Shown here in pieces: positions 160 to 27,305 of a stretch of 58,456 nucleotides of DNA. Position numbers and translations under genes: made by a program. Within the stretch, counting starts at the first letter, position 1. Every line of letters starts with the position of its first letter. Location: contig JWZX01003199.1 in NCBI GenBank assembly GCA_001275005.1, positions 1 through 58,456 of the forward strand, written 5' to 3'. Source of the DNA: Chrysochromulina tobinii. Lineage: Eukaryota. Under the pieces are notes generated by a model, which was given only the letters and a program-made list of their open reading frames with translations, was not told where the DNA came from and searched no databases.

Positions 160-780
160 TCAGCCAAGACCGGGCCCCTCATGGCGTCCTAGCTCTACTG
201 GCAACAGTTTCCCATCCTCCTCATCCGCCAGGCTCGCAGGCATAGTCGCAGGGAGCGCATCCCGCGCATCCAGCAAGGACCCTTCGAAATCGGATGCCCA
301 TCGCGCCGGAAGGCGCGCGATGAGCTGCTCGGGGCCGAACTCGACCGCGCCGAAGGGCTCGTCTTCGCGGACGTGCAAGGCGCTGCCTTCGATGGAGCTG
401 ATGGCCGTCCCGATGATCCTGCCGTGCTCATGGTCTCCCGCAAAGTTGAGCTGCAGGACGTCCACTCTGGCGAGGAGGAGCCGAGGTGGATTTCCAGAGC
501 CGACCGGAGTGTAGTCGACATGCCAGGTCCCCACCTGGTACACGCACAGGTCTCCTTCTTTGAGGCGTGCAGACAAGTGCGCCAGTCCACGTCCACAGTC
601 CCGTTGCAGCTCCACGCTGCCCGAGGCTCGAACGCAAGAGGCACGCGCACGCACGTGGAAGTTCCGGTGCAGCTGAGCGCCTGGGCCATGCAAGTTCTGG
701 AGGCGGACAGCATCGACGATCAGGCATGGCCACCCTAGCAAGAGCGAGGTAACTATCGGGCGGATGGAGCTCCTCGTCAT
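160..780 (-). CDS. Hypothetical protein (~206 aa) with a possible N-terminal signal/targeting peptide
   Basis: Lies in ORF 160..912. First ATG at 780 gives MTRSSIRPIVTSLLLGWPCLIVDA (hydrophobic leader), followed by a globular-looking region (LKEGDLCVYQVGTWHVD...HEHGRIIG). Divergent from the giant gene. Confidence 0.55.
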   Translation of the reverse strand: MTRSSIRPIVTSLLLGWPCLIVDAVRLQNLHGPGAQLHRNFHVRARASCVRASGSVELQRDCGRGLAHLSARLKEGDLCVYQVGTWHVDYTPVGSGNPPRLLLARVDVLQLNFAGDHEHGRIIGTAISSIEGSALHVREDEPFGAVEFGPEQLIARLPARWASDFEGSLLDARDALPATMPASLADEEDGKLLPVELGRHEGPGLG

Positions 781-1228
781 GTCTGGAGCAGAGAGCTGCT
801 TCTCGAGACGCTCGATCGCCAGCAAGCAGGCCGTACGCAAACGCACGAACCCTCTCGTCCCGTAGGGGAGAATTTCGCCACTCGAGACTGTCGCAAGACG
901 TGTGATCAACACCCGTCACGCTCAATGGTAGGCCAACGATGACGGTCGAGTGCACAACGATACACTGCACGACCACGCGACACCGAAAACTAAACCCCTC
1001 TCCGTTCCCACTACACATTCACACATGTGACCAGAATCCCTGAGATCTTGCTGGACCTCTAGCGAGCCCACTGAGTAGGTATCAGCTGATTACCTGACTC
1101 ATCTCGCGACAAAACGAGCTCCAAAAGCGAGTTTGTGTGCGCCGCGAAGCAAAGCGCGCGCTCGCAAGACACTTTGCTCGCGCGCTCGAGCTCTCCCCCG
1201 TTCTCGCGGAGCGGATTCTGCCAGGGAT

Positions 1229-4200
1229 ATGGTCCAACACAGTTACGAGTCCTCGCCCGCGACCCCATCGGTAAGCAGGACAGCAGCTTGCGTGATAGCT
1301 CGCGCTGATGATTCTCGAGTGCTTGATTGGTTTTCCATCCTGACCGCCGCTTCGTTGGCTGCGCAGGCTAACCGGCGAGCCGTTCCACTCGACTCATACG
1401 AGGCCTTACGACACGAGTTGTCAGTCCATCTCGAGGAGAACGTGCCGTGGAACGTGCTCATAGCTTGCGTGAAGCTGCTGCCACTGCCACTCGAAGCTCG
1501 CTTCACCGCATCGCAAGCCGAACACCACGCAGCGGATCTCCATGTGCCTTCGGGCGCCAAGGACTGGAGCGATGCCGAGCTGAAAGAGTATTTTGAATCA
1601 GGAGGTATGAAGCTGCCGTCAGATGACCAGTTCTTTAAGATTCTCGGCGGTCATTGGCCAAGCTTGCAGCCTGATGACATCCGGATGTGCGCGCGGACGC
1701 TGTACCGAGCTCGTGCTGAGGGCCGGCTCGAGGAAGCCAAGCCTGCCTCCAGAGACGGCGCCCTTGATGAGCCTGCGGACACACAGGCCCCGCGGCACCC
1801 GGGGAGCGCGGGCGCTGCCTCGAGCTCGACTTCAGTGCCCATGGATCTGGACGAGCTTGACTCGCACGGCACGGCTGTGGACTCGTCCAGGACCCCTGCT
1901 GTGGAGAGCTTCTCAGGTCTGTATGCAACGATGCGTGGCCACGAAGCGTTCCGTCTTGAGGCTTTGGACCACCCCGGCGGCAATGCCGTGGGCCCCCTAT
2001 TCGTAGTCTACGCTGGCGTGCCAACACACGGATTCTTCAAGGGTGAGACTGCGAAAATGCCAACGCTCACTGGAACAGCTACCGGGAAGTGGGAGTATAG
2101 CGATCGCGGTGGACAGTGGAAGGTAAGCTGGCCAGAGAACAAAAATCCCTCCCCAGGCAGTATTGCTGTCGTTCGCGTTGACAAGTTCCGCTCAGCTTCG
2201 GCGAACACCGTCGGCGACGATGTCCGGCTACTATCGAGCGCGGTGAAAGCTCAATTTGGTGCTGTCGCGCTGCTCCTGATCCTCCCCACCGCGCCCACGG
2301 AGGAACAGCGTCTTGATCTCAGCAAGTCTGCTGATAACCTTGCCGTCCCTGTAATGGTCATCCGTGTGGACGACTCAAGAAAGATCACCAACCACGGTGA
2401 CCCGAAGAGCTTAAACGTGTTCCTCGCTGCAGACAAGAGCGCCTTGGCCAACCGGCGCGATACGCGTTGCATCAACGGGCAGCTGCAGTCGCAGCCGCCA
2501 CATCAGCTACTCGAGCAGCAGCAGCAGCAGCAACCGCAGGCCCGAGAAGGATGGAACTTGGTCAGCTTAGGACGCAATATTGTTTCTACCATTGTCAACT
2601 ATGTCTCGAATAAGCCAAAGCTCTCCGATGAGCTCAAAAAGGCGATTAAGGAGGGCGATTTCTCGCGAGTTCAAAATCTCCTCTTGGCATCTGCTGATGA
2701 TTTTCAGATCGACCTGGACACCTCGTGCTCGGTACTGGAGACTACTGCTACGCAGCTCGAAGAGCAGTACCCGTTGCTGCTGGTCTCGGCTCATCTCCTT
2801 CAGTCACGTGCGAAGAACGATAGCGCTAGCGGAGCAGAACGGCGCGCCATCGAGGTCGCATGCACAATTGCAACTAGGTACATCACCAACGGCACCTGGG
2901 TGACTCTTGGCGATCCGCCACTCTCACAAGTGGCATCGGCATCTGACCCCACCTATTGGAGAACCTTTCAAGATGTTGTTCTCTCGATCATCGAGGATGC
3001 GCCTTATTGCCACGACGTCGATGGTCTGGTAAGTTCGGCGCGAGTGCTGAAGCGGTGCTACGAGCTCAAGGCCTGCGACTCTGCGGACGCTCGAGCATTG
3101 TGGTCCAAGGTCCTGCAGAGGGTGATACGCATGCCCAATGGCAAGAGCATCCGCCTCGCGAAGGAGCTTGGAAGCGCGCTCAGCGAGTCCCACGTCGACG
3201 GACATACTGTCCATGCCTTTGATAAATCAGACCATCTCGGTCTCGTGCGAGCCTGGCGTGATGACATTCAGTCCATCGACGACTGCTGGGCGCTGCTCAC
3301 TTGTATTGGGCATCTCACTCAACCATCTCCTCAGGCTGTGCGCGAGTTCGAGGACATCTACGAGTGGGTTGCGCAACAAACGTGTGCGCAGCATGATCCA
3401 GATGTGGGTCCACTGCAACTGATTGACTTTGTTGAACGGCTCAGCCGCGTGCTCCAGCTCGGTTCTAGCCAAGTGGACTTCGCCTTGCAGAAGCTGCTCC
3501 AGGGCATGCTGTCGGCACGCAACGAGCCACGCGTCCATTATCAACGTGCAAACGTTGTCCTCCTCGGGCTTCACAAGCGCTTTCATACTTTTTGCCCGTC
3601 ACTATGGAAGGTTGCAGTCGATACGGTCACGGCTCACGTGCGGAAAACGTTCAAGTCACTTCGCCCCGATCACTTGGGTGAGTGGCTAGTGTCGGACGCC
3701 TATAAGCACGTGCGCGTTCCTCAACTTGACGGTGCCCTGGAAAGGCTTCGAGCATCCAATGACTCGACCGACTTTGATCCGTACCTCAAGCTTAAAGAGT
3801 GCATACGCCAGGCCATGCCGACCACGACTCGTGAGCATGATCTTTCGTCGGGGCTAATTTCCAGCCTGCACACGTGGCTGCGAGCCAAACCGACGAGGCT
3901 TACGTCGGGGTTTGGTGCACTTTTGAACAGTGCACCAGATCCAAATGTGGATGCGAGCTATGTTTTGCAGATAACGGATATCCTCAAGGAGACCAAAGCC
4001 AGCATTCGCGATCGCGATCCGCAGTTTCCACTTCAGCTCGCTCTCGTTCTGAGAGGCGTCACTCGGCTACCAAACCTGCGAAACCTGCTGACGCAAGGGT
4101 TGCTTCATCTCGCGGCTGAGTTCATGTGCCCTTCCACCCTCAACGTGCACGCACCAGGCTATGAGTTCCGTGATGTGATCGAATCCTTGACTCGATTACG

Positions 4201-7200
4201 CACGCCAGAGAGTCTGGCGTGCCGTGGCGTCGCAGCAAATATCCTCATCATATGTATGCAGTCCTTCGTCACCCAGACCGTGACCACCGACAATTGGGTC
4301 ACAGTCATAGCAAATGCCAATCACCGCACGGGCCAGGACTACACTTTCCTCTTTGTTGTCGTAAAGGCTGTCACTAGTGCTCTCGGCCCAGATGGAAATA
4401 TCATGGCGGACCTGGATGAGGAGCGGGCTCTTCTACACGAATTGCATGCATCCTTTGGAAGGCAGTTTGCGAGCGTTTGGGATCAAGTGCGGACTGAGTC
4501 CATCTCTCTTTGTCAACTGAAACAGATCCACCCCAATCTGCAACGAAAGGAGTACGACTTTTCCCAGAAATTGACAGCGCTCTTGCGATTGGAGTCTCCC
4601 CCCGTGGCGCAGCTTGAGCAGCAGATCAGAGATGGTGAGAGCATCCTCGTGTGGATTCTTCAGCAAAAGCAGACGGTGCGATCGATCGAGAAATGGGGCA
4701 TCGATAGGTCGCAGATTAGCGGGATCTTCGACCTCTTTGAGCGTGCTGATTCCAAAGACCACACTCTCACCGACCTTCGGCGCGCAGAAGCCTCGTTAAA
4801 GGCGTGGCTACACCCTCTTGGAGCCCCCGAACGTCAGTTCTTCGAGTACTTCAGTGGATTCGATCAACACGACGACATGGCATCACACCAACGACAGTCG
4901 GTGTTGTTCAGCCATTTCCTGGAGCAGCAGCTTCCGCCTGCCACCGACGGTGCGATTCGCACGACGCAAGCGTTAGCTGATGCGCTACGATCCGTCATCG
5001 AGCTGTTCGAGGCCCTGGTGCAAGGTCGCGGGGAAGTTCGCTTTAGCCAGCTCAGAGCTGCAGGCGAAAGGCTTCGAGAGGCAGGACGTACTCCAGACGC
5101 CGAGCTGCGTGTGATCGCTGGCTTCTTTGGAGAGCAGGCTCTGGTCGCCGATCGCGTTGAAAGCCTTCGATCAGTGCTTCAGCTCGGCCAGATAGTGGGG
5201 CCTCTGCGAAAGCTTGTCGATACGCTTGAGCAGTACACGTTCAGATGCAGTCGTGATGACGTCGCCGATGACACATACCACGTGCTGTGCGGCTACGCTG
5301 ACGGCTTGAGCGATGATCGAGACGAAGGTCTGATGCGCGGGCACTCGATGACGGACTATAATGACTTGCGTGCGAACATCCATCGATCGTTGCGTCCCTC
5401 GGGCGATCGCCGCGGTGCCGAGCAGCAGCGTGTGTCAGACCAAGAGCACGGCGAGGAGCTCGCGCTGCTCACACTGTTTGCGCAGCTCTCTGATCACGAT
5501 CGAGTGTGGCGCTTTGTTCTCGAACGCAAGTTCTTTGGCGGTGGCATGGCGCAATTCAAGGAGAAGCTCGAGCTGTTACAGAACCAAGTGACTGGCGTAG
5601 ATGCCGAACGGCTTCTCAACCAGCTGGAGGGTGCAGTGGCTTACCTCTCAGTCGTTGCAAGCCTACGTGAGCACAGCCTTTCGGAAATCCTTGCCGCGCT
5701 CTGGAGCAGCGAGCAAGTGATGCGCGAGGCCCGCCAGGCTGGGAGCGCTCGCTTTCAACAGCTTCGCGGGCTGCAGGAGCACATGGGCCGCCTTGAGGAG
5801 TGGTTCGATAAGGGTCTCGGCGGGCTCGATGCAGTCTTTGCGCAGTTCTTTTGCGTGCTCGCTACAGGATGCTTCGAATTCCACCTTGCGGACCCTCCCG
5901 GGCTCTGGCTGACTTACACGGATCATGATGTCGAACGCACGCTCAAGTCAGACGAGCTGGTTGACTTTGAACACCGTTTGGGCTTCGTGCAGAACGACGA
6001 CAAAATCACCAACCCCGTGAGTCAAGGCACCGACTACAAGTCCAACAGGTGTGCTCGATTCCTCGAGCGAGTTCAAGAGTATCGCAAGGCGTTCGCACTC
6101 ATGTGCGAGTTGTGCGCACTCGGCCATCCGGAGTACCAGTCCATTCCACGTGCGCCCGTTAATCCGGACGAGGTCTCGCAGCTCTCTGTGCAGCGCTTGA
6201 GCCGGGCTCTGAGCGCATGGAAGCGGAGGTTGGAAGAGGTATCAGCGGTGCACCCGTACTTGCGCTTCTATTCGACACGCGAGGCGCAACGTCTTCATCG
6301 GTTGCTGCTTGAAGGATGGCCATGGATTGCGGCGGATGGTTCAGCACAGGAGCTGACCTTGGCGTTGATTCCACTCTTCCAGCGGTCATCGGGTGTGTTC
6401 TCGCGTCTGCTCGATGTCGTCGAGAAAGCTCGCATCAAGCCTGCTGTCCAAGCTCTTGCAGTTGCTGATGATGATTCTGCTGTCGATGGCCCTGCACAGT
6501 GGCCTGCGATAGTAGGTGCTTTTCTTCAAACCGTTCAGCATGGCATGGGCAGCCCGCCGCTCCCCGTTCGTCCGGCCGGAAGCCCGCTTGTCCACTGGCC
6601 CGGGTTGCACGTGCACACGATCGAGCCGTCCTCTGATGCCATGCTTGCGCTCATCTATCGCATCTATCAGCGCTTACCGGAGCCTTTTGAGGTTCTCTGG
6701 TGCTCTGCGACGACCCATCTGCGAACTTTGGAGACCTTTCTTGACCGCGTTCGGCACCATGCTGCAACGGACACCAGCGCTGGGCGCTGCTTCGTGCTGG
6801 TACAGGTCGAGGCATTGGCACCGACTGCTCAGCAGGCTCTGCTGCGTCACTTGCTTGCCTCACGAGACACGGGTGTGCGCCACAATATGCACTGCTTACA
6901 GAGTGCCAGCACCTCGCTGCAGGCAGCACCATGGATTCGCCATCACAAGGGGACAGCTTCGACTGCGGCTTCCGAGAAAGATCAACTTTCCGGGTCGAGC
7001 TTACGCAAATGGGTCGTGGACGGCATGGACTTTAGAGCGGTCACATGCGTCATGGGCCCTTCAGGGAGCGGCAAGACCCATTGGATCAGGAAACGTATCC
7101 TGCAATGGATGCAAGAAGACGAGGCCCGCGCCGTATGCGTGTTCAGCATCACGGAGGCTTTCTCGCTTGAAGCCGTCTCGCAGAAGCTGCAGAGGACCAT

Positions 7201-10200
7201 CTTGAAGGAAGGCAGCTCGACTCAGCTTGCACTGTGCTTCCATCTCAACATGGGCAAATTCCGGACGTACGAGATGCATGAGTGGAAGGCACTCATGGAA
7301 AAGATCAATCGCTTCTTCTTCAGTCTGCTCGTTCTTCGCAGCGTCGAGGATTCCACTGGATTCGTCTTCAACGTACCGCCGGGCAGCCGCTGGGAAGTAA
7401 TCGTAGAGATTCCCGATCGGATCGGCCATCTTGATGAGGCTCCGGCAGACACACTGAGCCAGGATGATGGTTTATGGAAGGAGCTACCTGTGCTTGCTTC
7501 GATTGGCACGTTGCAAAGACCTGCCGATGCATTCGATCTCGATGGAGAAAATACTCGCCTCGTGTGCAAGTACCTCAAGGCATATCAAGACGGAACGATC
7601 GATGAGTTGTACACCTCAAATGGAGGCGGCTATGGCGGGCCCAAGGACGTGATCTTCGTCCTCGACGCGTCAGGCAGCATGGCGGGCGCCCCTTTTGAAA
7701 CCTGCCGTCGATGCCTTCTTGAACTCTGCAGAGGAAAGCTTCAACCTGTGGATCGTGTTGGCGTTGTCGTGTTCAACGGCAGGATCCTCTTAAACGTTCA
7801 GCCAGCGCCGTTGAGTGCCCGGCACCTGGCAAACATCGAGACCCAGTTGGTATTCGTCCAGCCGAGTGGTGGCACAGATTTGTGGGGCGCCATGTTCGAT
7901 GCTGCTGACCTTCTATGCTCGCTTCCTGATCGAAATCCGAGTTGGATGGTCAGCCTGACGGACGGCCATTCCGAAGGTGAAAACATGCAAGCGTGTACAG
8001 AACGCCTTCGCAAGCTCGATGCCTCCAACATCAACGTGCTCTCAATTACGATCAACCTTCAAGACTCTAGTCGTGATCTCATCCGACGCGTATGCGTCGA
8101 CGGTCGCATCGGTACGAATGAGATTGTTCCTGCAGATGGTGGCCTGGAGGCGATCGAGGAAGCGTGGGCTGTCGTCGGCGAGGCCATGACCGTGAGTGAG
8201 AGGGTTGAGCTAGCAGAGGTGACGGATGCTGAATGCCACGCTCTTCTTTCACACTACATGCTGCTACCTCAGAAAAGATGGTCCATGCTCAAGCAGTCTT
8301 ACTGGGTGCGTTACCTCGCGCGCCGATGCCACATCCTTCGCACGTCTGAGAAGTTCAACATGAACGATGGCTTCGAGCGATTCGGCAGCTCAACTTTGAA
8401 GATAATGATGGAAGAGGCGCATCATGCCCTGAGTGATGACTATCGCCACGACTGGGATGCAATCAATCACGAGCAATTCGTGTATTGGGAGGAAAATGGT
8501 GACTCGAAGTGGAGCCTGATCGCAACGAAGCCAAGCGAGATGAGTGTGGAGCGTAGGCAACTTCTCGACGAGCTCGAGCTTCACGTGCCATCTGCTGACG
8601 ATCTTCGCAAGCGCCGCGTGCTCGACAGTCTCCTTGCACGGGGCCTCGGCATCGATGCCGTGCTTCAAGATCGCGCCTTAGAGAGGCGACAGCGCCCGAT
8701 CGTGCGTGATGGCCAGCAATCGACGATAGACGTTGAGATCAATCTTGGGACTATCGCCGCTGTTGATGAGCACCGCTTTGTCCTGACTCTCGACTTTACG
8801 ATGAAGATGCTTTGTATGCACGAACGCATAGAATGCCGTGTGCCTTGCATTATGGAGGGCGAGACGGGTGTGAGCAAGACAGCGCTTACGCGAATGTACT
8901 TCATCCTCAAGAATCTGTCGAGCATGAGCGCGCAGATGCAAGATGTTGATAACCCGCGACTGCGAGTCACTGTGGACCAATTGCGCAATCTGGCAGCCGC
9001 TCAGCAGCCTCAGGATGCCGCCGTCGCCTTCGGGGAGATCCAGGTGGACCCGGTTGTCCGCACTCTGCAGAGTATGGCCCTGAGCCTCTTTTCCTTCTTC
9101 CTCCCTGACGCCGGCTTCCGGTCTGTGCCGCAAGAGGTCTGGAATGACGCTAAACGTCTCGCGACCTATCTTTGTGATAGTGCAGTGGACGGGTCTGCTG
9201 CGGTCAACATTCCGCCGTTTCGTGCCGCGCTCTTGATAGAGCTCAAGCAGGATCCGGGGCTCCTAGTCGACAACGGCTTGTGGCAGGCGGTGCAGACGGC
9301 GTGGAGCCCTGCCTGGCAAGATCCGATCAATGAGCGCTCAGCCGGTGACATTAGCGCCGAAGTGCTTGCTGATCTGCTGCTGTGCTACATCCGCGCAAAG
9401 ACTTCGCTGATGAGCAGCCCTGTTGGCTGGACTTTCCATCAGCTCAATGTGCACGCTGCACTCACACCTGCCGCCATTGAGACGGACCTCGCACCAATCA
9501 TCGAGCTTGGCTTCCGGCTGCAGACGGCTGCTGAGTTGCTTAACTCGCCCCGCCATCGCAACGTCAAACTTTGCATCTTCCTCGACGAAGTGAATACGAG
9601 TAGCACTATGGGCGTGTTCAAAGAGCTCATCGTCGACCGTAGGCTTGACGGTGTCGATTTGCCTGAAAACATCGTTGTCATCGCTGCGTGCAATCCAGCG
9701 CGTGAGAAGCTTGTGCATTTTTCCGCAGCGAACGCACGTCGCGAGGAGCTTGGTAAGGAATGGGCAATGGGCCACTACCAGGTTCACCCACTGCCGCTCT
9801 CGATCGAGCAGGTGACCTGGGACTACGGATCACTTAAGGCAGAGCAGGAAGCGGAGTTCATTGAGAAGCGGATGAGTGCGCTATATCGAGGCGAAGACGT
9901 GCGCTTCCCTTATCCCGAGCAACGTCAGCTTGCTGCACTAATGTGTCGCTCGCAAGATCTGACACGCGCCTTTGCACAGCAGCAGTTTGCTGGCCTGAAG
10001 GAGCGCATAATTGCCGCCTCGCCGCGACCACTCTCGACTGCTGAGCTCCAGCGCATGGATGCCGACCTCAACGCGCGCGCGAGCTCAGTCGTCTCTCTGC
10101 GAGACATCCAACGCGTGTTCGCGCTGTTCCGATTCTTCGACAATTTGCTGCAGACGCACAATGGCGAAGCTCATTTCTTCATGGAGGGCGGTGACGATCC

Positions 10201-13200
10201 TGCAAGTGCCCCCGAGCGTCGTCGCCGGTCCATGCTTCTCACAATCGGTGTGGTGTATTACCTGCGCCTCTCAACGGAGCAACGCGTTAGCTTCGAGTGC
10301 GACTTGCATCAGATGCTCCGAGATGAGCACAACTTACGGCTAGATAAAGTACTGACCGAGGCCATGGATGCGCTTATTCAGACAACCGAGCTTGAGCAGG
10401 GTATCGCACGTACCACAGGTCTCAAGGAAAACGTATTCATGGTCGTCGTGTGCACCTTGGCACGCATTCCTCTCATGATTGTACGTGCAGGCCACTTCCC
10501 TCTCCCACCGCCCCACGCCATGTGGATGGTTGCCGACTCACAGCTCTCCGCCTTCCGCAGATTGGTCCACCGGGATCCTCTAAGACACTGGCCGTCACCG
10601 TCGTGACTCAGAATGCGAAGGGCGACCAATCCAAGGCCCGGTCATTCTACCGGACGCAAAAGCGGCTTCTCAGCTTCCATTATCAGTGTAGCCGTCGCAG
10701 CACGAGCACGGAGATCGAAGCCGTGTTCAAACGAGCCGAGGACAAGCAGCAAATGACACACGGTGATACCTCGTGCTTTGTCTTCATGGACGAGGCCGGT
10801 TTACCCGAGGAGCAGCGCGAAAGCCTCAAGGTTCTTCACTACTACCTCGAAGATCACATGTCTAGGCCAGCCAAAGTCGGCTTTGTTGCCATCACCAACC
10901 ACGCACTCGACGCGGCCAAATCGAATCGCTGCGCAATTCTTCTGCGCGCGGAGCCTGACCATCGCGAGCTCATGCAGATCTGCATTGGCGGCCTCGGCTC
11001 CGAGGCAGAACAGCGGCGCCTACTCGCACAGACTGTAGTTGGCCTCGACGAGCGCCTCCCCGATGTGCTCGACAGACTCTGTTTAGCGTACCAGGATCTA
11101 ATGCGCGAGGAGCGGGAGCTCGCGTGGTTCAACACGTTCTTTGGCCTGCGTGACTTCATGCACGTCATCAGGCTGCTCGCGCGCCTGTCCAGTGGCTCTA
11201 CGATCAGCCTCGGAACCATTGTCCACGCGCTAGAGCGCAACATGAGTGGCGTAGAGGAGGCCGATCAGCTTCAGCTCATCAATTTCTGGCGTCGCCGTCT
11301 TGGTGCCGGTGACAAGCTTCGCATGGCCGAGCTCCGTAATCCATACACGCTGCTCCGCGAGAGCCTATCCGAGCAGGCACAAGCTGAGCGGCCGATAAGC
11401 CGCTACAAGCTCCTGATCGACACAACGGCCGATGATTCCATCCTTCGACTTCTGCATGCGCGGCGTGACCTCGACGTGAGTACGGACGAACACCGTGGTT
11501 CGATCATCCTCAAACTCAGTGACTTCCGTGAGGACACTAGCCTGCAGCAGGTGACGCTCGTGAGCAGCGTCAAAACAGCAGCTGAGAAGGGAGAGGTTGT
11601 TGTGCTCTCGCACACTGAACCCGTCAACGAGAGCTTTTACGATCTATTCAACCAGCATTTTCAACGGCAAGAAGACAGGCACGCGCGAGCACTCGTGAGT
11701 TTGACCGTCTCGCCAGGGGGTATTAGGATGGACATCACCGTCGGTCATGTTGCTGTCAACTCTTATCACGCCAACATAGCCGTGGGCTCGCATTCCAAAC
11801 TGTGCCGCGTCCATCAGTCGTTCCAGAGTGTGGTTCATATGCGCCTCTCCGAGCTTCGCTATGCGCCCGCCCCTTTCCTCCATCGCTTCGAGAAGTACCG
11901 ACTCTCGCATCGCAATCTGCTCGATGCGCACGTTGCGGAATATCCGAGTCGGTTCCGCAGTTTTGTCTCCAAGGTGCTCGCCAAGCTACACAGCCTTGTG
12001 GAGTGCATTGAATCGCTCAGTCTCTACGGGTACAAGGCGCAGCAAACGCTCGAGTCAATCCTCCTATATTCGGTGTCCACCCTGGGGAGCAACTTCTGCA
12101 ACGTCTTGACGCCCGCGTTTGCGACCTCGATCGCATCTGCAGCTGCAGCTGAGCTCCAGGCTGATCCAGAGGCGCTCGCGCTCCTGCAAGATGGTGTGCA
12201 GGAAATCGGCGAATCTGTTCGAGAGGCGATGCACTTCCTCCTGTCGTCCAATGAGTCAGGATCTGCAACGTCGCGGTTGGCTGTTGCGATCACTGGCCAG
12301 TGGCTGCTGCAGACTTCAGTGTCACGGCTGATCCAAGTGTGCACACCTGAAAGGCTCTACAAGCACCGCGCCGTTGTCCCCTTTGAGATGCTCGACACGT
12401 ACTTCAGGTGCCAGGAGCACTTTTCGCTGAAGCGGCTGCTGCAAGGCATGGTGAGCACACGTACTGCACAGAGGATGGTTGTCTACACGCGCACAACTGC
12501 GTCGCTATTATCCCTGCCGGCCCATGGCCTCGAGAGCTCAGAGGACGAGAGCTCAGCTTCGGAAATGCATCTGCTTGAGGCCCTCATTTGTGAGCCGTTC
12601 AGCCTTGAACTTCCTGATGGCGAAAACGAGATCATTACCCTGGCTGATTTTTCCCTCTGCCCACTGTCGCTGCTTACCACGCAAGAGGCTCTCCTGGCAT
12701 GCCTTCGCTCCTTCCGAAGCGCTGCAAGCTCAAAACGAGTACTCTTATTCTTCATCGATATGGCGGAGACGCCCACGAGCCGCGTAAATTTTGTTCGAAG
12801 TAAGGTGGACGAGCTCTGTAGCGATATGGCTTCCAACAAGTCCATCGTGGTTATCATGCATTTCCCTGCATCGAATGTCTATGTGCTGCCATGCTACGAC
12901 ACAACATTCTGTGATCAGTGGCAACCTGTGTTCCTGGACTCCATCAGCGAAGAGGCCAGTGCACTCGGTGCCCTCGACGTGAGAGAGTGGCTTAAGCTCG
13001 GCGCGTCCAATGACTACCAATCGCTCGTTGATGTAAAAGCGTGGGACCTCATGCCCGCTCTCCAGGGCTGGCTGAATACTGCGCTGACGACTGCTGCGAG
13101 CCGCATTGAGTATGCACGGGGGTGGAATGGGCAAAGTCCTGGAGACTTCAATCCAATGCAGCCAGTGCCCGTCCAAGCCCGCGTGAAGCTTCTGGAGGCT

Positions 13201-16200
13201 CTCATGTTGAAGAAGCTGAAAGACCCCCAAAACGGTGTTGAGAAGACAATCGAGCAGGTGCTGTGCACACGCTATTCGATGCTTTGGACCGACGGAGATC
13301 ATCTTATGATCAGGGATCGGGTGCAGTCCGCAACGCAGCTCCTCGCCTCTGGGCAGCTGCGTGTTTCTCTTGTGGAGGCAATCACTGGCGAGGTGCGAGA
13401 GGCTTTCTGCAATTATCTCACCCTCATGATCTGCAAGATGAACGAGCAGCTTAACTTGGACTTGCTCGACGAGATCTCGCTTTCAACGCTGGATCCTCAC
13501 GTCCAGGGTGTATTTCTTCGCTGCCTCACGCTGTTGCCCATCCCGCCCATTCCCGAGCTCAAGCTGCTCACTCAGCCGCGCCGCATTGTCGTCACAAGCC
13601 CACCTCCTCAAGCAAACTCGATGTTTCCGTTCTTTCACCTCGTCTCGGCGCTCTTTAGCCAGGCGACGGGTGAAGTGTTTGCAACTGCGGAGGGCCACAG
13701 TCTCTCTGAGAGGCACGCCGCAGCTGCAGTCGAAGATAAAATCAAAACATCCGATTCGCCACTTGCAGAAGTGGTTCGTTGGATGGCTGGTATTGACGTC
13801 ACATGCGAGCTTCCAGAAGAGCTGTGGAAGCGTTATGTGGCTCATTTTGTAAGCAAGCTGTGCTGTGGCTCGCCAATCGTTGAGCAGCGGATGGTGATTG
13901 CTTGGCTGCGCAACCGCTGCTACAGCATCGATGCAAAGCGGCCAGTGATTGCACTGCATATTGCAGCGCATCGTAACGAGGAGATGATCAAAGGCTTGGC
14001 TGCCATGCTTCGGCCGCTGAGTGTGCTCATGGAAAGCATGGGAGCAACGTCATCAGCGATGATGGAGGCGAAAATGGAAGATTTGGGGGATGCCGCCGCA
14101 ACTCGAGAGGTCGCCGCGAGTTTGCACGCCGCCATCGTGCAGGAGTTCTACAGGCAGATGGATCTTGCTGTTGCCAGCTCTGAGCAGGACCCTCAGCAGG
14201 CAGTCAAGTGGGCCAACGCATTTGGGTTGGTCGAGCTTCGTGACTTAGTCGTCGATAGCCAGGGTTCAAATATCCCCGAGAGCGCAACGAGCCTGCTCGT
14301 GATGAGCGTAGTGCACGCTGCTGCCAAAAGTGTCCGGGAGGGCGACGATTGCGCTTCCTTACGCCGTTTCGCCCAAGAGGCCAAGCTCGCCATCAATGCT
14401 CAACTGCGCCTCGAGAGCGTTTGGCGCATCACACAGCGGATCTATCCGGATCGAACGGGACTGATGCAGCGCATTTTGAAGCTTTGGTGCAGCACGGCTC
14501 AGTTTGAGTGCTCGCCGCTCAAGCCTGAGGTGCGCTCTGATGTGGGATTCTTGCTGAATACCCTTGTTCATGAGCACCAGCTACCCGAGACATTACGCAC
14601 TTATGTTGTCGAGTCCTTACTCTCGAACTCGCGGCTTGTCGGCACTCTGTGCGACTACAACGTCATGGAGCGTGATGCCGACTCGAGCAGCAGCGCCGAA
14701 GTGCTTGAGCTACTTGAGAGCCATCTCGTCGATCAGCTCGCAACAAGTCCTATTGCTGAAAGCTGGGAATGCGCGTATGTGCCCCCGTGGTTCAAGCAGG
14801 AGGGTGCGAAGCTCGATCGACCCGTCGCACACGCGTACTTCACTGTTGTACTCAAGCAACTGCTTGCCCAGCGGTCAGGAAAGCTTGAGGAGTCCATTGG
14901 CCTATACTGCAGCCTGAAGTCACAGCTCGATGGAATGATAGAAAGCCGCAGTCGTGCTGCGACGACTGTCTCTGTACGGCAAGCGCGTCTCCGAAAGTTG
15001 GAGCGTAAAGGGCCGTTGCGAGTGCCTCACTTGCGTGCTATCACCCTTGCTGCCTGCAAGCTCTTGGTGGTGCTTGACCTAGGCTCACGGCTCGCGGCTA
15101 CTGCTCGGCACGATCGCGATCCAGCGGAACCGTTGCTAGAAGGTCCAGAAGCGCAATTGATGAGCGAAGCGCCCTCACTGCAGCTCCAGGCACTTGTGGA
15201 GAGCCATCCGGACTGGGGGCATGAGCTCATGAATGCTTTAGCAGGAGAGGTCCGCAGCCGCGAGACGATGATCAAGTTCTTACGCGCACACGGCCGGCGG
15301 CTTTTACCTGCGGTCCTGAGCCAATGGTCCGAAATACCGGCGGCTGCAGAGGAGTGCGTCGGTCGGCATGCCAAGTTGGCATTTGCATTCGACCCTGACA
15401 ATGTGCTCCACACCACATACTGCTCACTAGCGGAATCAATGACTGACCGCGATTTGCTCATTGCGAAGGTCCGAGCGTTGTGCAGTGCGAGCGCGGGCGT
15501 GGACAGACACAGGCTCGACGTGATCATGATGATGTTCGCTGCAATCTATTACGAACGCAGCACAATCAACAATCATGCGGTCATGAGTGCGCTGGATGCG
15601 CTGCAGAACGAGTTAAAGTTGTCCCCAAGTGCAATGCGAGTCTTCCGTGGCTTTCTCCAGCCTGAAACTCTCATTGCTTTTCAGGAGCCCGGTATGCCGA
15701 GCGATACGCTATATGATCTGCTGAAGGCACCACCGGCGGAGCTTCAAAGCCGAGAGGATCGTGAACTGCAGTCGTGCATCATCGGCATGATCGCCCTCAC
15801 CCTCGGATCCAACGAAGCCACAACCCACCTTGCTACGCACATCCTCCAGCCAGACCGGCTTGTCAACACTTTTGGCGTTGGGAGCCAATACTCACAAGCG
15901 ATCGGGTCAGTCCATTACGACTGTGGGTGTGAGCTTACGTTTGATGGCGACGTTCCCGCGAATCGTCCGCGACGCGAACCGCTCGACCGCCACTCACGCT
16001 ACTTCGTCCTTTGGTCGTCCTTTGCGGCGCTGGGCGTGAGCTTGGTCACACAGCCGGAGTCGCAGCACACCATGCGTCGTGTGCTTTCGCTTCCGGGGCA
16101 GGGCCTTCGCGCAGGCGTCCTCAGCTTTTGTAAGGCGCCATGGCATCATTTGGGCGTGAAGCTTCAGCTCAACGCTGAGAGCCAGTGCCAGCTCGTCCTC

Positions 16201-19200
16201 CGTGCACTCGAGCATCACCGCGAGAGCTCGTTCCAAAGCCATCGCGGGTATGCCAACGTTTTCCACAGCATTCCAGCAGTGCAGATGTATGAACGCCAGA
16301 TGATGATCTCATTCCATCATGCTCGTCAGCGTCTGCCGGACTACATCGCCCTCCTTCGCCGCCGCGAGGCCGCGTCTCAGCTCTCGAGCCGACTCGACGA
16401 CTTCATCATAGAGCACCCGCCTCTGCACGTGGCAGTCCGTCCCTCAGTGCCACCCATCACGCCCAGCGTCATCTTTGAGGATGAACTCGAGCTTGTAGTC
16501 GGTAGGGACCCTACAGGAACGCGTGAATTGGCCATGCTACTCACCTTTACGCGCAAGTGCCGTCATTTGCGCTTCCTGTGGGTGCTCCCTGACTTGATCG
16601 AGTTCTACCAATTCCTGCACGTGCAGCTCGAGTACATCCTGCTTGAAGAGCAGGCCAAGCAGAAAAGCATTGGTGCGCTGCTCGAGTCGATGGCGACAAA
16701 GCGCGGTAATGAAGGCACCCGAACGCGCTTTAGCCAGAACGACGCGCGCCGCATCACCCAGCTTTGGCTTCGTGTAAAGATGGGCTTCAATCAGTTCGTG
16801 GCTGAAAATCAAGCCATCGGTGTTGGGGCGTGCGCTGCGAATCAAGAGGCTGCGGCTGCAAATGCGGCGGCACATGCGCAAGCTGCACTAGAAGCTGTCG
16901 AAGCGACCGTTGGAGGGGACGTTCATCGAGTAGCCGAGGCTGCAACGGCGGCTGCAGCTGCAGCTGCAGCTGCCCGCGCTGCTGAACAGCGGCTGACTCG
17001 AATCTCGCCTTTGGACGATTCTCATCCTATATGGCGTTTCCTGAGCACGAATGAGGATGAACTGTTCGACGACGGCGGCGTCCGCTTCAATGGCCAGGTG
17101 TTAACTTGCGACAGCCTGTTCCTTGTCATTAAGCGCATGGTTGCGATGCACAATGATTTGGTATTGGAGCTTTCCGAGCACGGTCTGGCGACTGCTCACG
17201 ACAAGAAGCCGATCAAACCGCTTGAGCTCAACACGGCAAGCGTTGCACTTGGCGACGTGCGACCTTGGGACCTGCACCTCGGCGTCGATGAAAGCAAGAG
17301 CCTCGCTCAGCAGACAGCGCAGATGGAGAGGCACTTGAAGGAGAGCCTGCTTCATTTGGATCACGCTGGAAGCTTTGCCAAGTTGGTGCAGCTCCACTGG
17401 CAACGTCAAAGCCAAACGTCAAAGACACCGTTTGATTTCGATGCTATCCGCCGAGAGGTGAATGGCCTCTACCTCGATCGGCTTGCAATAATTGAGGACC
17501 CGTCTGCCCACTTGCGCCGTGTATTTCGATTTCGACGGACGTCAGCAGGCAACGAGGCTGCCTCAGGAGACGAGGCGCTTGCTACAGCAGTTCGGTTGCA
17601 AAGCGACCTTACGCGTTTGCAGCACGCCCTGAGTGCCTCGCACACGCTAGGTGACGAGGAGACAAACGGCATGCATATCCTATACTTCCGCATGTTTCAC
17701 TCGCTCGAGCATGACCAGGTGGCCAAGCTGCTTCGTGGGCTTGACATGGTCGCCACCATTTGGATTCGAGCCGTCTCGGCTGGCGCTCATGATGAAGACG
17801 CAACGATTCGGACGCAACTCGGTGAAATGTTTCCAGATGTCAAGAGTGACGCCGAGCTACTGCAGCGCGTGCACATTGAGCTCTACGAGGAAGAGCAGTG
17901 CAACACCCTCCTGCAGGTGCGGTTCACGCAGCTCTCATTGTTGCTGAACTACCTTCGCATCTACCTTTCGTCGCAGGACTACATCTTCGCTCGCCTGCCC
18001 TTTGTGCTTAAGGCGCGGTGGGACGACGATGTCATCGTGACCCTCAATACGATCGAGCGCACGTACGACACAGACCGCTCGAATGACCGCTTACCTCTCT
18101 CTGCGGCGGCTGCGCAGCTCGAGTCAGGCATCGTTGACTACGAGCAGGTCTTCAGCTCCGAACCGGAGACGCCGCTGCATAGATTCATGGTCAACTGGGC
18201 AGGGAGCGAGCAAGCGCTGTACGAAGAGCTGCCACTGATGCGCGAGTTGCCCAAGAGAATTGCGCTGCAGCACTACGTCGAGCTGCGTAAGCTCCTGCAC
18301 CGCTGGTCGCATAGGCCTGTGACAGCGGCACCGATCGCGGAGAAGTGGGCATGGCCCTTAATATTCAACTCGCAGAAAGTTGCCAAGCCGGCAGCGACCG
18401 TTGAGCCGTCTGAGGACATTGCATCTCGCTGGGTTCTCTGGTTTGAGGACGGCGATGACCTTATAGATGCCAACACGGCAGGACAAGTAAGAGAGGTGCT
18501 GGACGAAATCATCAGCGCGCTGGCGTCAGAGGATCGCCGCATGAAGAAGCTCGAGATGAACGCCATACGTTGCCAGTTCCGCTGGCGCTATGTGCTCGGC
18601 TGTCGAAGGCGAAGGGCCGAGAAGGCTGTGGCGCAAGCAGCACTGGAGGCGGCACACTCTGCTTTCGAAAAGCTCAGAGGTGCAACTGACAAAGAGCTTC
18701 CAAGTGCGATTGCAGCTGCTAGGCCGCATGTCAGTGCGTTTGCTGAGCTGGCGGAGCTCCTACTGCAAAAGCAGGCTCGGATGGCAGAGATCAATCGCAA
18801 TTTGTCGGAGGCACGAATGAAGACGATGCGATGGTATGTACGAGTATTGGCTACTGCTGTGGGCTTCTTGATTTTGGCGATGGTCATTCCGTTGCTCATA
18901 AGCTCTGGCGACGCTGCGCTGGATTCGACGAGCCATCCTGAGCTTGAGAGCGCCACGCAGCAGGGGATCTCTATTGCTCGACTGACAGCATCGGATGATT
19001 TCCAGCTCGACTCCATCATCGAAGGCTTTGACGCAAGATTGGAAAAAGCATCCATGGAGATGAGCCATGGCCTTGATGCTGAAGAGAGCGGACCGCCTTT
19101 GGCAACTCCAGAGGTTGAGGGGCCTACTACTCAGTTGGCAGGGCCGACGGCACAGTCGATGCTGCAGCAGACGGACGCCACGGACGCAACGAGTTTGCTT

Positions 19201-19494
19201 CGCATTTTCGGGTTGATCGTGGGGCAAGGATGTGCATGGTGGTTTGTATGGAATAAGTTTTGTAACGAACGGCATGGCGATGCCCCGAAGTCGATGCTGC
19301 GACAGCTGACAAGCGTGGTGTTCATCCTTTTGCTGCTTCTCGGAGCATGGTGGTCCGTTTCGAGCGTGGTCCGCTGGGACGATCGCAAGAGTGTTCGTGA
19401 TCGCTTGAGTCACCTCGTTTCGCTCAGGGAGGCTGGACTGGTGACTGAGGAATACTATCTCGAACGTGAGAGGGAGCTCCTGCAAATGATCTGA
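1229..19494 (+). CDS. RNF213: Giant RNF213/mysterin-like AAA+ ATPase, join(1229..1270,1367..10480,10561..19494), ~6029 aa
   Basis: ORFs 1133..10606 and 10450..19494 join in frame across intron 10481-10560, giving RIPLMI|IGPPGSSKT. A colinear series of RNF213-type motifs is present: MGPSGSGKT; FVLTLDFTMKMLCMHERIECRVPCIMEGETGVSKT; FLDEVNT; IAACNP; YQVHPLP...WDYGSL; VSLRDIQR; YQCS; FMDEAGL; GFVAITNHALDAAKSNR; FFGLRDF; PFLHRFEKY; LPDLIEFYQFLH. The symbol means family-level similarity, not proven orthology. Confidence 0.88.
1271..1366 (+). other. Probable intron 1 of the RNF213-like gene (96 nt, in frame, no stop codon)
   Basis: GTAAGC donor at 1271, CTGAC branch motif near 1340, GCGCAG acceptor ending at 1366. 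Because it is 3n and stop-free, retention cannot be excluded. Confidence 0.65.
10481..10560 (+). other. Intron 2 of the RNF213-like gene (80 nt)
   Basis: GTACGT donor and CCTTCCGCAG acceptor. Removal restores the frame immediately before Walker A GPPGSSKT. Confidence 0.92.
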
Positions 19495-20147
19495 GCCAGT
19501 CATCGGGGCGGATCGAGCGTGTGCCCGTGGGCTGTGGCATGTTGAAGAGATGCCGTGCGCGCATGACCATGAGCCGTGATCGTGCAAAGGCCGAGGCGCG
19601 CGCGCGCGCGCGCGTCAAGTGTGTACTCCTGTAATTGGTATTGCTAGTGAGGTCTCTGACACTCTCTGAACTCCAAGTGGTCAACGCATCGCATGGCGTG
19701 GGGTCAGCGGGTTTTCCCTGCCGCGCCGCCCCCCTCGCGGTGCACCCACGGATTCCCACGCTTGCCGTCGGTGAGCGCCGCAGTACAGTGCCGACCATCT
19801 CGTGTCGCCCCGTTTTCACACACACACACACATGTACCGACCTGATGCGGGCGAGCTCCAGAGCTCTCCCAGTCCAACTAGGAATCCGGGATCTACCTGT
19901 GACGCCTGACGCCCCGCTGATGAGCCAACACCACACCGCTCCACATCACACTCGACACTCGACACAGGGCGGACGCGATTCCGTTCTATCTGCGACGTGC
20001 CACGCAGCGCGCACTCCATCTCACATCATGCGTCATCTGGTCACACACGGCAATGCAGTGTAGCGCTCACCACAGCGCCACGACACGTGCGCCGGCGCCG
20101 GTTGGCGGCGCAACGCGCCTCTTGCCGCAGCCGGCTGGATTTAGAAT

Positions 20148-20963
20148 TTAGAAGCCGTAGGCGTCGCCGCCAAGGACCACGTCGCCGCCGAGCACGGCCT
20201 CCGAAGTCATACGCTGGTTGATCGAGTGCGGCACAACGCCCGCGGTCATCGGGAACTCGACCGGCGCGGTGTTGACGATGCGCACGACGTTGCCCGAGCC
20301 CGGCGTCTCGAGGATGCAGAAAAAGGGCCGGTCGAGGCCATCCTCGGTGTACAGCTCGATCACCTGCTTGTTGTTGTTCGGGCCCTGCAGCAGCTCGATG
20401 CGCGCGTTGAGCGGGCGGCCGTCGGTCTTCAGAAGAACCTCAATGCTGTCCACAGTCGGATCGAAGGGGTACGTGCGCAGGGCACCACCCTGGATGGTGG
20501 CGGACGCGGCAATGCACTCAGCCGACGGGTTGTCAACCTGATCGGCGATGACGTTGGCAGCGATCGGGAACTCGATCTGGCCAATGTTGCGGATGGCAAC
20601 GGTGTTGGGGCCGCGGGGGGTCTCAATCGTCGCGCAGAAGGGACGCAGCTGGCCATTCTCCACATACACGCGCATCTTGCACGGCGTGTTGTCGGGCCCG
20701 TGCCAGAGCTCGATGTCGGCATCGAGCGGACGGCCCTCAGTGCTGAGCACGACCTGCACCTGCTCCACCGCCGGGGAGCGGTACGACCAGGTGCGAAGCG
20801 AGCCGCCCTGGATGAGGATGGCCGAATCGGCCGACGGAGGCATACGGGTGGGCACCACGCCACCAGTGTAGCCAGTGTAGGAGCCCGGGGGCGCGCTGAC
20901 GCCGTATTGCATCATCGGGGTGCCCATGCGGAGGCCAACGGTGCCAATCATGGTTGCGAGCAT
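20148..20963 (-). CDS. Algal protein of unknown function with an internally duplicated domain (~271 aa)
   Basis: ATG at 20963 (MLATMIG...). Two homologous halves: IQGGSLRTW...TEGRPLDADIELWHGPDN and IQGGALRTY...TDGRPLNARIELLQGPNN. Strong GC3 codon bias. Confidence 0.85.
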   Translation of the reverse strand: MLATMIGTVGLRMGTPMMQYGVSAPPGSYTGYTGGVVPTRMPPSADSAILIQGGSLRTWSYRSPAVEQVQVVLSTEGRPLDADIELWHGPDNTPCKMRVYVENGQLRPFCATIETPRGPNTVAIRNIGQIEFPIAANVIADQVDNPSAECIAASATIQGGALRTYPFDPTVDSIEVLLKTDGRPLNARIELLQGPNNNKQVIELYTEDGLDRPFFCILETPGSGNVVRIVNTAPVEFPMTAGVVPHSINQRMTSEAVLGGDVVLGGDAYGF

Positions 20964-21668
20964 GTCGAAGGCTTCGTGAGAAGGGGTTCGTGTCCGGCGA
21001 GGAATCCTCATCGAAGGAGATCGAAGCTCCAAAAGGATCCTCAATTCCATCCTGCAACCCAGCATAACACAACCGTCCTGCTCATTTTCGGAGCCGTGCC
21101 GGGGCATGCCGGTCCGTCGCTCGAGACCTGTGCCAGCTGCATAACTCTTGTCACTTGTGTGAACCGCGTCCGACACATAAGAAACCCCACGCGTTACAAG
21201 TATAGTATGAAGGAACCCGCGGCCGCGCGCGCGCGCGCGCTGCGCGTAGAGAGTCCGACCCCAAAGCGGACCGTGCAACCATGCAAGATGCATTGCACCA
21301 AGCACGCCCGCCGATGGCCCATGCCAGGCAGGACGCTCCAGCTGCCGGCCCCAAGATGTCAGTGACTCTCACCCCATCGCGCGGGTCTCCACTCTCCACA
21401 TGCGCACATGACTTGGTCGGGCAACTATAGGTTGATCAGACAGCCTTCAAACTGCGCTCCGCTCCATCAGTCTTAATTACTTGCTCCATCATGCCGTGTT
21501 CGTTTACATGTATTGGGATGTCCGTCACAATCTGCTGCGAGATTGCGATCTGCCCTTTCGAACTTGCGCTTTCACCTGCCGTTACCTCAAGCCAGATCCA
21601 CGCCGTCCTGAGCACTTATCCATGCAAGGCTGTTCACGCCCGGTAAGGCCGTTCACGCCCGGTAAGGC

Positions 21669-23300: not shown

Positions 23301-23565
23301 TGAGCCTAGCGACGCCCGATTCCTAGTCTGCTTTCGCGATGCCGATCCTCTGCTCCTCTGTGCCGATCCTCTCCTGGATGCCTCGTGCGTCGGTCATCGG
23401 AGCACACGAGGAATCCAAGAGTTTCAAGTCTCAATTTCGCGGCCAATTTTACAAGAACTTTGATTACGAGCGTAGGGTGCGCGATCCGTCGTCCGTGTCG
23501 ACCGACTCGTCGCGTGTGTGGGTACCATCCTGACACACACTGATGAGACAGCAAGCATCTCGGTC

Positions 23566-24466
23566 TCAAAACCGTTCGTACTCGACCTCGAAGCCGCACG
23601 CACAGCGCTTGGTCCACGTGTCCTTGGCCTCATCGTACGTCTCGTCGGGCATGAAGACGTGCGTGTGCGACACAAACGCCGACTGCTGCGCTATGTGCTT
23701 TGCAGCCGCGGCTGGCCGCTTAGCCTGAGGCACGAGGATGGCTCCAGTGGCAATCAGAGGCAATCAGAGGCAATCAGAGGCAATCAGAGGTCATCAGAGG
23801 CCATCTCACCTGAGGCACGAGGATGGCTCCATCGCGCCGCGCCTGCTCACGTTCGGCCGCCTTGCGCTTGCGCGCCTCGCCCTTGACGACCCGATCACTC
23901 ATGCGGCGCTCGCGTTCGTTGAAGAGCCCTTCCGAGCTGCCCCACGCCTGCAGCGCTAGCGCCTCTACCTGCGTGCGCAGGAAGAGCTTCATGTCGCCGC
24001 CGTGCGAACGGCCCGACTGCGCGTATGGGTTGGGCCGGAGGAGGCAGCCGAGGCCGCCGCGCTCCTTGGTCAGCTGCCGATCGGTGAGAAAGTATTCGCC
24101 CTTGACTTTCGTCTTTATGATCAGCTCGTACTTGCCACCAGGGCCACGGGCCGCCTGCTGGCAGTCGTAGCACGCGCTCACTCCAAACGCTGCAAAGAAT
24201 TTCGGTTGTCCGCTCGCTTCGCCGCACTCATCGCAAATGCCCACCGTGCGCGGCGCGTGGTCATCCGGCGGCGGCGGTAGCACCATTCCCCGCTCCTGCC
24301 GCTCCAGCGCGTCCAGTGCTGCCTCACCCTCATAATCAAAGTCGTCGCTCTCCACGGGCGCCGTCACTTTCCGAGGTGGCGGTGGAACACCTCGCTGCCG
24401 GTTCACCTGCTGTGCCGGTGGTGGCTCGATGTAGTCGTCCTCGGCAAAGAAGCCGCCGCCTTGCAT
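23566..24466 (-). CDS. XPA: DNA repair protein XPA/Rad14 homolog, join(24466..23810,23724..23566), ~271 aa
   Basis: C4 zinc finger CDEC...CYDC. XPA_C motifs KYELIIKT...EYFLTD, PNPY, GDMKLFLRTQVE...WGS. C-terminal HTHVF...KRCACGFEVEYE. Confidence 0.9.
23725..23809 (-). other. Repeat-type intron in XPA (85 nt)
   Basis: GTGAGA donor, (CTGATTGCCT)n core, CAG acceptor. 23-bp direct repeat at 23724-23746 and 23809-23831. Confidence 0.9.
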
Positions 24467-24637
24467 TTTTCGTGTGAAGGCGCGATTCTTCCCGGAATCA
24501 ACACAAGACTCAACCGGAGACGTCAAAAATATGCTTCTCACGATTGTTTTCCGGCCACGCTTCCAAGAAGTCCCATCAGTGTGTTTCTATGGCTGCAAGT
24601 GGGGAAAAAGGCGAGCTTATTTCTCTCGCCACCCGCC

Positions 24638-27133: not shown

Positions 27134-27138
27134 GAGCC

Positions 27139-27295: not shown

Positions 27296-27305
27296 CGTCG
27301 ACGGC

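Follow-up and report, generated by a model that had tools for sequence, protein, structure and literature searches.

The 58,456-nt stretch analysed here (positions 1 to 58,456 of contig JWZX01003199.1, assembly GCA_001275005.1; hereafter the window) comes from the haptophyte Chrysochromulina tobinii, and its plus strand carries, from position 1229 to 19494, a giant gene for a relative of RNF213 (mysterin). RNF213 coats pathogens as a ubiquitin ligase and is the principal gene of moyamoya disease; current thinking places its chemistry in the RZ finger. Our results showed that the algal gene is transcribed and spliced to give one full-length protein of 6,029 residues, which is colinear with RNF213 through the stalk, the linker, the ring of six AAA units, the E3 scaffold and the C-terminal domain (CTD). 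The RING and the RZ finger are absent, and the RZ site is taken by a loop holding Asp-Cys-Gly (DCG), whose cysteine, Cys4840, is a candidate catalytic residue by position and conservation. We propose, as a reading about as likely as not, that the protein is an ATP-gated, cysteine-type ubiquitin ligase, anchored to a membrane by its tail, in which the DCG loop replaces the RZ finger.

One spliced transcript encodes the whole protein

The open reading frame (ORF) list of the window contains two long plus-strand ORFs, 1079-10606 (3175 aa) and 10396-19494 (3032 aa), which the original prediction had joined across an 80-nt intron into a protein of about 6029 aa. Comparison of three RNA runs and one DNA run over positions 500-20400 confirmed the joint. 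Intron 2 (10481-10560, 80 nt, GT..AG) is spliced out at 10480/10561 in 3/3 RNA runs aligned and in 0 cases in the DNA run, and its removal restores LMI|IGPPGSSKT, the Walker A motif of AAA4, at a point whose flanks fall on residues 2204 and 2206 of RNF213. Near the 5′ end, the in-frame intron 1 (1271-1366, 96 nt, GT..AG) is likewise spliced in 3/3 RNA runs, whereas the DNA run lacks the joint. The coding sequence consists of exon 1 (1229-1270, from the ATG, residues 1-14) and exon 2 (1367-10480, residues 15-3052), both supported by RNA, and exon 3 (10561-19494, residues 3053-6029 and the stop), supported by the ORF and RNA; the spliced frame is exactly 6029 aa with no internal stop. The transcript span, 1149-19631, is given by one RNA contig (X14 record 18, 18,307 nt) with both introns removed, which includes all hydrophobic segments and the stop codon, so that the transcript does not end before the transmembrane (TM) region. 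The X15 RNA contig (18,451 nt, end 19775) has, judged by length only, the size expected for 1149-19775 minus both introns, and other RNA contigs end at 19623-19775.

The stretch was contained in 16 of the 20 listed sequencing runs, six of them RNA runs that may belong to one campaign. Four RNA runs followed over 19400-33000 had zero depth at 20762-21215, so these libraries are not plain DNA. At window positions 2357, 16551, 18124 and 19453 the base differs in all four runs compared, DNA included; three of the differences alter a residue, none creates a stop, and they represent a strain difference or an assembly error.

That the locus holds two separate genes, or is an assembly artefact, is extremely improbable. 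Such a reading could draw on unspliced pieces that retain intron 2 in X11 and X12 (and intron 1 in X12) and on contigs that in both runs are deeper on the 5′ side of this intron, but the unspliced pieces are probably pre-mRNA or DNA, and a short isoform was not accepted as the source of the depth excess, since contigs cannot show expression levels. The single 18,307-nt contig spliced across both introns all but rules out a split gene, the flanks of intron 2 align to adjacent RNF213 residues, and the same two ORFs recur on three metagenome contigs.

Automated annotation, which had been expected to break the gene in two, instead produced a single 5921-aa model already named after RNF213 (KOO23374.1, Chrysochromulina tobinii, ‘e3 ubiquitin-protein ligase rnf213’) at the same locus. 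This public model is wrong at three introns and at the C-terminus: it leaves intron 1 in place, excises two segments of about 27 and 29 aa that are present in the RNA contigs, and, unlike the RNA-supported protein, stops before the last TM helix and the tail. The corrected gene model returns the membrane tail missing from the public record.

The protein belongs to the wider RNF213 family

Sequence searches of the PDB showed that both halves of the protein match RNF213 (E 2e-19 and 8e-24); within a single chain, the first half stops at residue 2204 and the second begins at residue 2206. The only other matches were vWA domains of inter-alpha-inhibitor chains, with no dynein or midasin match among them, and the dynein-type P-loop match in Pfam was weak (E 7e-4). 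A dynein or midasin identity was ruled out, as the AAA matches in the PDB are to RNF213 only. In hhalign comparisons with RZ-bearing relatives, the segment from stalk to AAA3 (residues 1156-2543) aligned at probability 100 (E 4e-43, 1061 columns), AAA5 to the E3 scaffold at 98.7 (987 columns), the RZ region at 96.8 (393 columns), and the distal scaffold with the CTD at 99.1 (E 1.5e-18, 437 columns). The PDB matches and our reading of the motifs bear out the RNF213-type order of AAA motifs described in the original prediction, and the PDB search and profile comparison agree with its choice of RNF213 over dynein and midasin as the best relative. The fold comparison that it had also suggested was run on the E3 region. 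The AlphaFold model had a pLDDT of 77 (94-97 in the DCG loop), and the top eight Foldseek rows were all RNF213, the best being the human E3 module (Z 23.5, 353 aligned residues, rmsd 20.9). A phmmer search of the PDB with the E3 region alone gave no RNF213 match, although profiles and fold did find RNF213, and the same region searched among longer proteins returned three close copies only; the systematic search for relatives covered proteins of up to 5,210 aa. For residues 15-1114, no homologue appeared among 7,980 candidates of 1670-5317 aa, which is a weak negative.

The protein does not count as an animal-type RNF213, since the RZ test fails; it is a member of the wider family and probably works in a similar way. 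Protist relatives of RNF213 are common, and databases already label several of them RNF213; RZ domains have been traced to unicellular eukaryotes in the accessible part of a recent preprint (10.1101/2025.10.14.682297). Our literature search, in which subscription papers were poorly covered and bioRxiv supplements might still hold such alignments, returned no paper that describes an RNF213 relative with a vWA, a DCG loop or TMs, and four supplements of PMC7311170 do not name the non-animal species looked for.

A cysteine loop occupies the RZ site

The RNF213-type E3 scaffold around the RZ position (15358-16830; hhalign 96.8 and fold match) contains neither zinc finger. At the RING position hhalign left a gap, Pfam gave no RING match, and no part of the protein exceeds four Cys per 50 residues; the RZ profile PF20173 did not match, while the control P0103 matched at 1e-21. 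With both fingers missing, the protein cannot be taken without further evidence to share the lipopolysaccharide-ubiquitylating chemistry of animal RNF213, a point overlooked in the original prediction. The RING of RNF213 is itself dispensable for activity.

The RZ insertion is filled exactly, between the two scaffold anchors that flank the finger, by a loop of about 30 residues with the DCG triplet at 15919-15927. In an alignment of the algal protein with 27 scaffold-covering relatives, found via AAA4 and not via the motif, Cys4840 is kept in 24/28, the Asp in 26/28 and the Gly in 23/28 at a median pairwise identity of 19%; besides Cys5143, described below, no other Cys column exceeds 11/28. 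A second sample, from HMMER against 1.84 billion representatives (79 matches), retained Cys4840 in 36 of the 38 proteins that cover the site, the search being biased toward the motif. The triplet resembles the catalytic [DEN]-C-G motif of RZ. As described in the accessible text of two preprints, the RNF213 RZ finger binds zinc via CHCC, and its nucleophile lies on a loop in the RZ insertion, facing the E2 that the CTD holds opposite (10.1101/2021.05.10.443411, 10.1101/2024.09.24.614677).

Several observations weigh against a catalytic Cys4840. By motif this residue resembles the catalytic RZ cysteine, whereas hhalign, at low confidence, pairs DCG with the zinc-ligand CxxC and Cys4840 with the last zinc ligand; DCG could equally match the stub after the RZ finger. 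The loop is predicted to be rigid, whereas the RZ finger, which has to reach the E2, is flexible. No His that could serve as general base is invariant (best 21/28), the E2-contact residues of the mammalian CTD are not kept (they also vary in the RZ-bearing P0108), and the high rmsd of the fold match implies that the model arranges its domains differently from RNF213. In the AAA4 tree, the sister group has no Cys module at all, which suggests that the scaffold persists without E3 chemistry.

The conserved cysteines could be structural, for example binding zinc with His4808 (21/28) or His5072 (19/28), in a non-ligase AAA+/vWA membrane remodeller similar to midasin or MoxR-vWA systems. We consider this rather unlikely. 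The predicted rigidity and the low-confidence pairing with RZ zinc ligands fit such a protein, as do the module-less sisters, often with extra AAA domains, and a vWA domain with a metal site (MIDAS) set into the ring, for which the accessible text of PMC7311170 offers a parallel in midasin. However, distant lineages all hold a one-Cys loop where the catalytic finger would sit, relatives carry RZ or Rcat-like modules as alternatives to it, and no vWA was found in the DCG members of sponges and Naegleria.

A second conserved cysteine

Cys5143 (16831-16833) lies about 300 residues past Cys4840 and is followed by the distal E3 scaffold and the CTD (16834-18324; hhalign 99.1), where RNF213 ends. 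Its column holds Cys in 43/43 non-gap rows of a 59-row alignment. The fold alignment pairs model residue 566 with human 4842, and its ranges place Cys5143 in the omega motif (mouse 4750-4809), a mapping inferred from the ranges; according to the accessible text of PMC7311170, this motif is sealed by the residue altered in the moyamoya variant R4810K. A Cys was found in the Cys5143 window of 19/19 DCG, 12/13 Rcat-like (the missing case being a cut-short sequence), 8/10 RZ, 2/3 Cys-less and 6/11 module-less proteins, with 26% expected by chance, and several of the module-less positives are by eye not at the homologous place. Judging from these alignments, most of the family, and RNF213 with it, has retained the second Cys.

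It is conceivable, though improbable, that Cys5143 or a Cys4840-Cys5143 relay carries ubiquitin, and not Cys4840 alone. The frequency of the Cys in the DCG, Rcat-like and RZ classes relative to chance speaks for such a role, and the loop is shorter and the Cys lost in most module-less sisters and in P0053, which has also lost DCG. This co-loss, however, amounts to few events, not many. P0084, P0097 and P0058 retain the Cys without a module and P0100 and P0106 lack it despite their RZ, the window test was positive in more than half of the module-less proteins, and in the accessible text of 10.1101/2021.05.10.443411 the probe cross-links of mouse RNF213 map solely to the RZ finger.

Exchange of cysteine modules among relatives

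The AAA4 search gave 189 relatives, of which 120 were listed and 119 remained after exclusion of an identical copy. The E3 site could be classified in 62 of these 119: 23 carry DCG, 14 a finger that we take to be Rcat-like from its pattern, 11 the RZ, 11 lack this part of the scaffold or any module, and 3 have the scaffold without the Cys; the remaining 57 were too short or divergent, and four class labels were corrected by eye. Relatives with the DCG Cys were found in haptophytes, sponges and Naegleria. The Rcat-like members are without the DCG part of the scaffold, and P0089 carries D-S-G together with an Rcat-like insert. The family thus appears, from these sequences, to exchange its Cys modules (DCG, RZ and Rcat-like).

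An unrooted IQ-TREE phylogeny of the AAA4 region (71 rows, SH-aLRT support only; rows lacking both a classified E3 site and a vWA, and short alignments, left out) recovered an RZ-type group with support of 100. The vWA-bearing rows (33, support 97) form a second group, which is nested among DCG proteins. Within it, DCG is confined to the algal protein and two close relatives, and these three are sister to 14 rows in which no module was detected. A single gain of the vWA, after which the DCG part was lost or replaced, would provisionally be the simple reading. Relatives also end in SAM or extra AAA domains, and three Seminavis proteins and many sponge copies represent lineage expansions.

In the sister lineage without a Cys module, P0007, P0012, P0014, P0019, P0210, P0224 and P0243 have two to four extra AAA domains past the CTD, and the chains of P0007 and P0014 finish with a small cysteine motif, CPMG...WRC. 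P0062 (Strigomonas culicis), P0063, P0064 and P0070, kinetoplastid-type members of the vWA clade, have no recognisable E3 Cys module. A pattern search found viral copies in 0 of 58 candidate stretches in viral contigs, which is a weak negative. Among 185,579 prokaryotic genomes searched, two, both of them metagenome-assembled, gave ten loci in all. Seven of them (L050-L056), from Nitrospirales, are exon-sized pieces with sponge-like DCG motifs and on these grounds likely host contamination; the other three (L057-L059) come from Verrucomicrobiaceae.

The AAA motor, the vWA insert and the N-terminus

The end of the stalk, the linker and the AAA1 region, homologous to RNF213, lie at 4790-7024 (hhalign probability 100). 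They are followed by the AAA2 Walker A (GPSGSGKT, 7055-7078; motif and hhalign), by AAA3 from Walker A to Walker B (8858-9592; motifs and hhalign), by the AAA4 Walker A (GPPGSSKT) and Walker B (VFMDE) at 10564-10797, and by AAA5/6, the hinge and the first half of the E3 scaffold with its gap at the RING position (11896-15357; hhalign 98.7). The Walker A of AAA2 and both Walker motifs of AAA3 and of AAA4 are intact, the pattern that the accessible text of PMC7311170 gives for mouse RNF213, with Walker A in AAA2 and active AAA3 and AAA4. A family-specific insert in AAA3 sets its Walker A and B 239 residues apart, compared with 64 in vertebrate RNF213.

The vWA module named in the original prediction was recovered by Pfam (VWA, 8.5e-9) at 7628-8194. 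It is a clean insert of about 190 residues relative to RNF213 in hhalign, placed in a loop after the AAA2 large domain, and it carries the MIDAS elements DASGS (the DxSxS motif, at residue 2114), SGGTDL and SLTDG. The results do not support an architecture peculiar to this alga: a vWA occurs in 25/79 relatives with a judgeable site and hydrophobic tails in 8/47. The segment once called PA-like (2147-2374) reduces to a short beta-alpha-beta-alpha-beta unit in a low-confidence single-sequence model (mean pLDDT 40); it had no PA match in Pfam or NCBIfam, and its best fold hits (Z 6.1) were unrelated folds, so that a PA domain is not shown. Pfam gave no CBM20-like domain either, and the N-terminal single-sequence model was of low quality.

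The membrane tail

About 390 residues continue beyond the CTD. They comprise, in order, a degenerate motif that we take to be IQ-like (18559-18600; an IQxWWR pattern stands here in 11 relatives), a helical spacer, a first predicted TM helix with basic residues before and acidic residues after it (18835-18903; Kyte-Doolittle (KD) 2.8; kept in close relatives), an acidic linker, a marginal hydrophobic segment (19195-19254; KD 1.4; absent in P0003, which is 62% identical), the predicted last TM helix (19312-19374; KD 2.3) and a SHOCT-like two-helix end conserved in relatives (19387-19491). The membrane anchor of the original prediction is therefore retained with two strong predicted TM helices, the third of its three being marginal. 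Its SHOCT-like tail holds as a short conserved two-helix end, but the Pfam SHOCT model (PF09851) did not match the algal protein; GvpG scored 6.6e-6, below the cut-off, and relatives P0181 and P0183 gave weak SHOCT matches (E 0.007-0.01), also below it.

Among 47 AAA4 relatives with a measurable tail, the eight with a peak KD of at least 2.1 all belong to the vWA clade; P0087, outside that clade, also has a hydrophobic tail. When 20 tails chosen from the 79 HMMER matches were examined by eye, six SHOCT-like and three SAM-like ends followed a hydrophobic segment. These tails have one or two TMs, so the membrane side of the C-terminal end may vary. More than one 50% cluster contains the combination of a TM with a SHOCT- or SAM-like end. 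A lipid-droplet hairpin anchor was considered and set aside, the two TMs being about 135 mostly acidic residues apart.

Proposed mechanism and cellular setting

In the proposed ligase, by analogy with RNF213, ATP binding at AAA3/4 would license transfer, and an E2 docked on the CTD would pass ubiquitin to Cys4840. The first TM is predicted from the sequence to leave the 5,800-residue body cytosolic and the CTD some 170 residues from the membrane, so that the ligase would act on membrane-near targets without recruitment. The vWA MIDAS might grip a substrate or partner, and the IQ-like motif may add calmodulin control. The most likely setting, though weakly supported, would be a phagocytic mixotroph in which the protein surveys phagosomes or other internal membranes. 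The accessible text of the C. tobin genome paper describes the host as mixotrophic and phagocytotic, which makes such a role plausible, and contains neither ‘RNF213’ nor ‘ubiquitin’ (PMC4580454). It counts against surveillance that nothing links the gene to infection and that Pfam and fold searches found no CBM20-like sensor.

A cysteine-type ligase might instead have a housekeeping role in quality control of proteins or lipids of the endoplasmic reticulum or other membranes, without any part in defence, which we judge unlikely. Transcription in 6/6 RNA runs from routine mixed cultures, permanent anchoring without a detected sensor domain, and the ties of RNF213 to lipid droplets and energy charge, in the accessible parts of published work, are what such a role would lead one to expect. 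The cultures include bacteria, however, which makes expression uninformative either way. Moreover, the lineage expansions and fast module swapping seen in Seminavis and sponges are typical of conflict systems.

Neighbouring genes

A guanylate-binding protein (GBP) gene with a long coiled tail, 24281-27133 (+), lies 4.8 kb downstream (Pfam GBP 1.6e-62) and is covered by RNA. GBPs and RNF213 cooperate in animal cell-autonomous defence; the linkage here may be chance. An ankyrin-repeat ORF at 30283-31257 (-), with a spliced RNA joint at about 30223-30298, has a weak U-box/MIZ-like end and is possibly another E3. The ORF at 20151-21368 (-) encodes a member of the diatom pyrenoid shell (PyShell) family (Pfam 9e-88), here in a haptophyte. 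Head to head with the giant gene stands a 251-aa ORF, 160-915 (-), with no Pfam match and low-depth RNA contigs. Further ORFs encode ShK-domain (54949-55917, -), EF-hand (21672-23393, -), SHIPPO-repeat (27911-29464, +) and aldo-keto reductase (45646-46659, +) proteins.

Significance and comparison with known systems

A broader view, which we regard as possible but doubtful, is that the zinc-free DCG loop represents a new class of transthiolation site marking a second ancient branch of RNF213, from haptophytes and Naegleria to sponges. The scaffold would then be a plug-in ligase that accepts DCG, RZ or Rcat-like modules and swappable tags (TM, SAM or extra AAA), the algal form would guard phagosomes, and the second Cys would be an unrecognised part of the transfer. 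A widespread branch with one conserved Cys in place of the RZ offers a sharp test of the idea that a broader class of ligases is defined by the scaffold itself, and a tethered form, if true, would be a machine running without the recruitment step that dominates work on animal RNF213. If the Cys is merely structural, the protein is one more protist RNF213 relative with odd additions.

Mammalian RNF213 (PDB 6TAX, 7OIK, 8S24, 9JWG) shares with the algal protein the stalk, linker, dynein-like AAA ring, E3 scaffold and CTD in the same order; in both, AAA2 has a Walker A, and AAA3 and AAA4 each have a complete Walker A/B pair. In contrast, the algal protein has no RING, no RZ finger and no detected CBM20, holds the DCG loop at the RZ site, and adds the vWA in AAA2, about 175 residues in AAA3 and the tail of about 390 residues; animal RNF213 is soluble and ends at the CTD, whereas the algal protein continues with its two strong predicted TMs. 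Midasin/Rea1 and the dynein heavy chain likewise carry six AAA units per chain, and midasin also couples a MIDAS domain to its ring (PMC7311170, accessible text), although the algal MIDAS lies inside AAA2 and that of midasin is C-terminal.

Among closer relatives, the RNF213-like proteins of sponges (Oscarella, Oopsacas), Naegleria and Pinguiococcus have the same E3 scaffold, the DCG loop and the second Cys, but no vWA was found in them, and they carry a SAM domain or no tail instead of TMs. Conversely, the relatives from ochrophytes (Seminavis, Chrysophaeum, Ochromonas) and Strigomonas fall in the same clade of the AAA4 tree and share the vWA, the IQ-like motif and often the TM tail, whereas their DCG part is missing and an Rcat-like finger or no Cys module is found instead.

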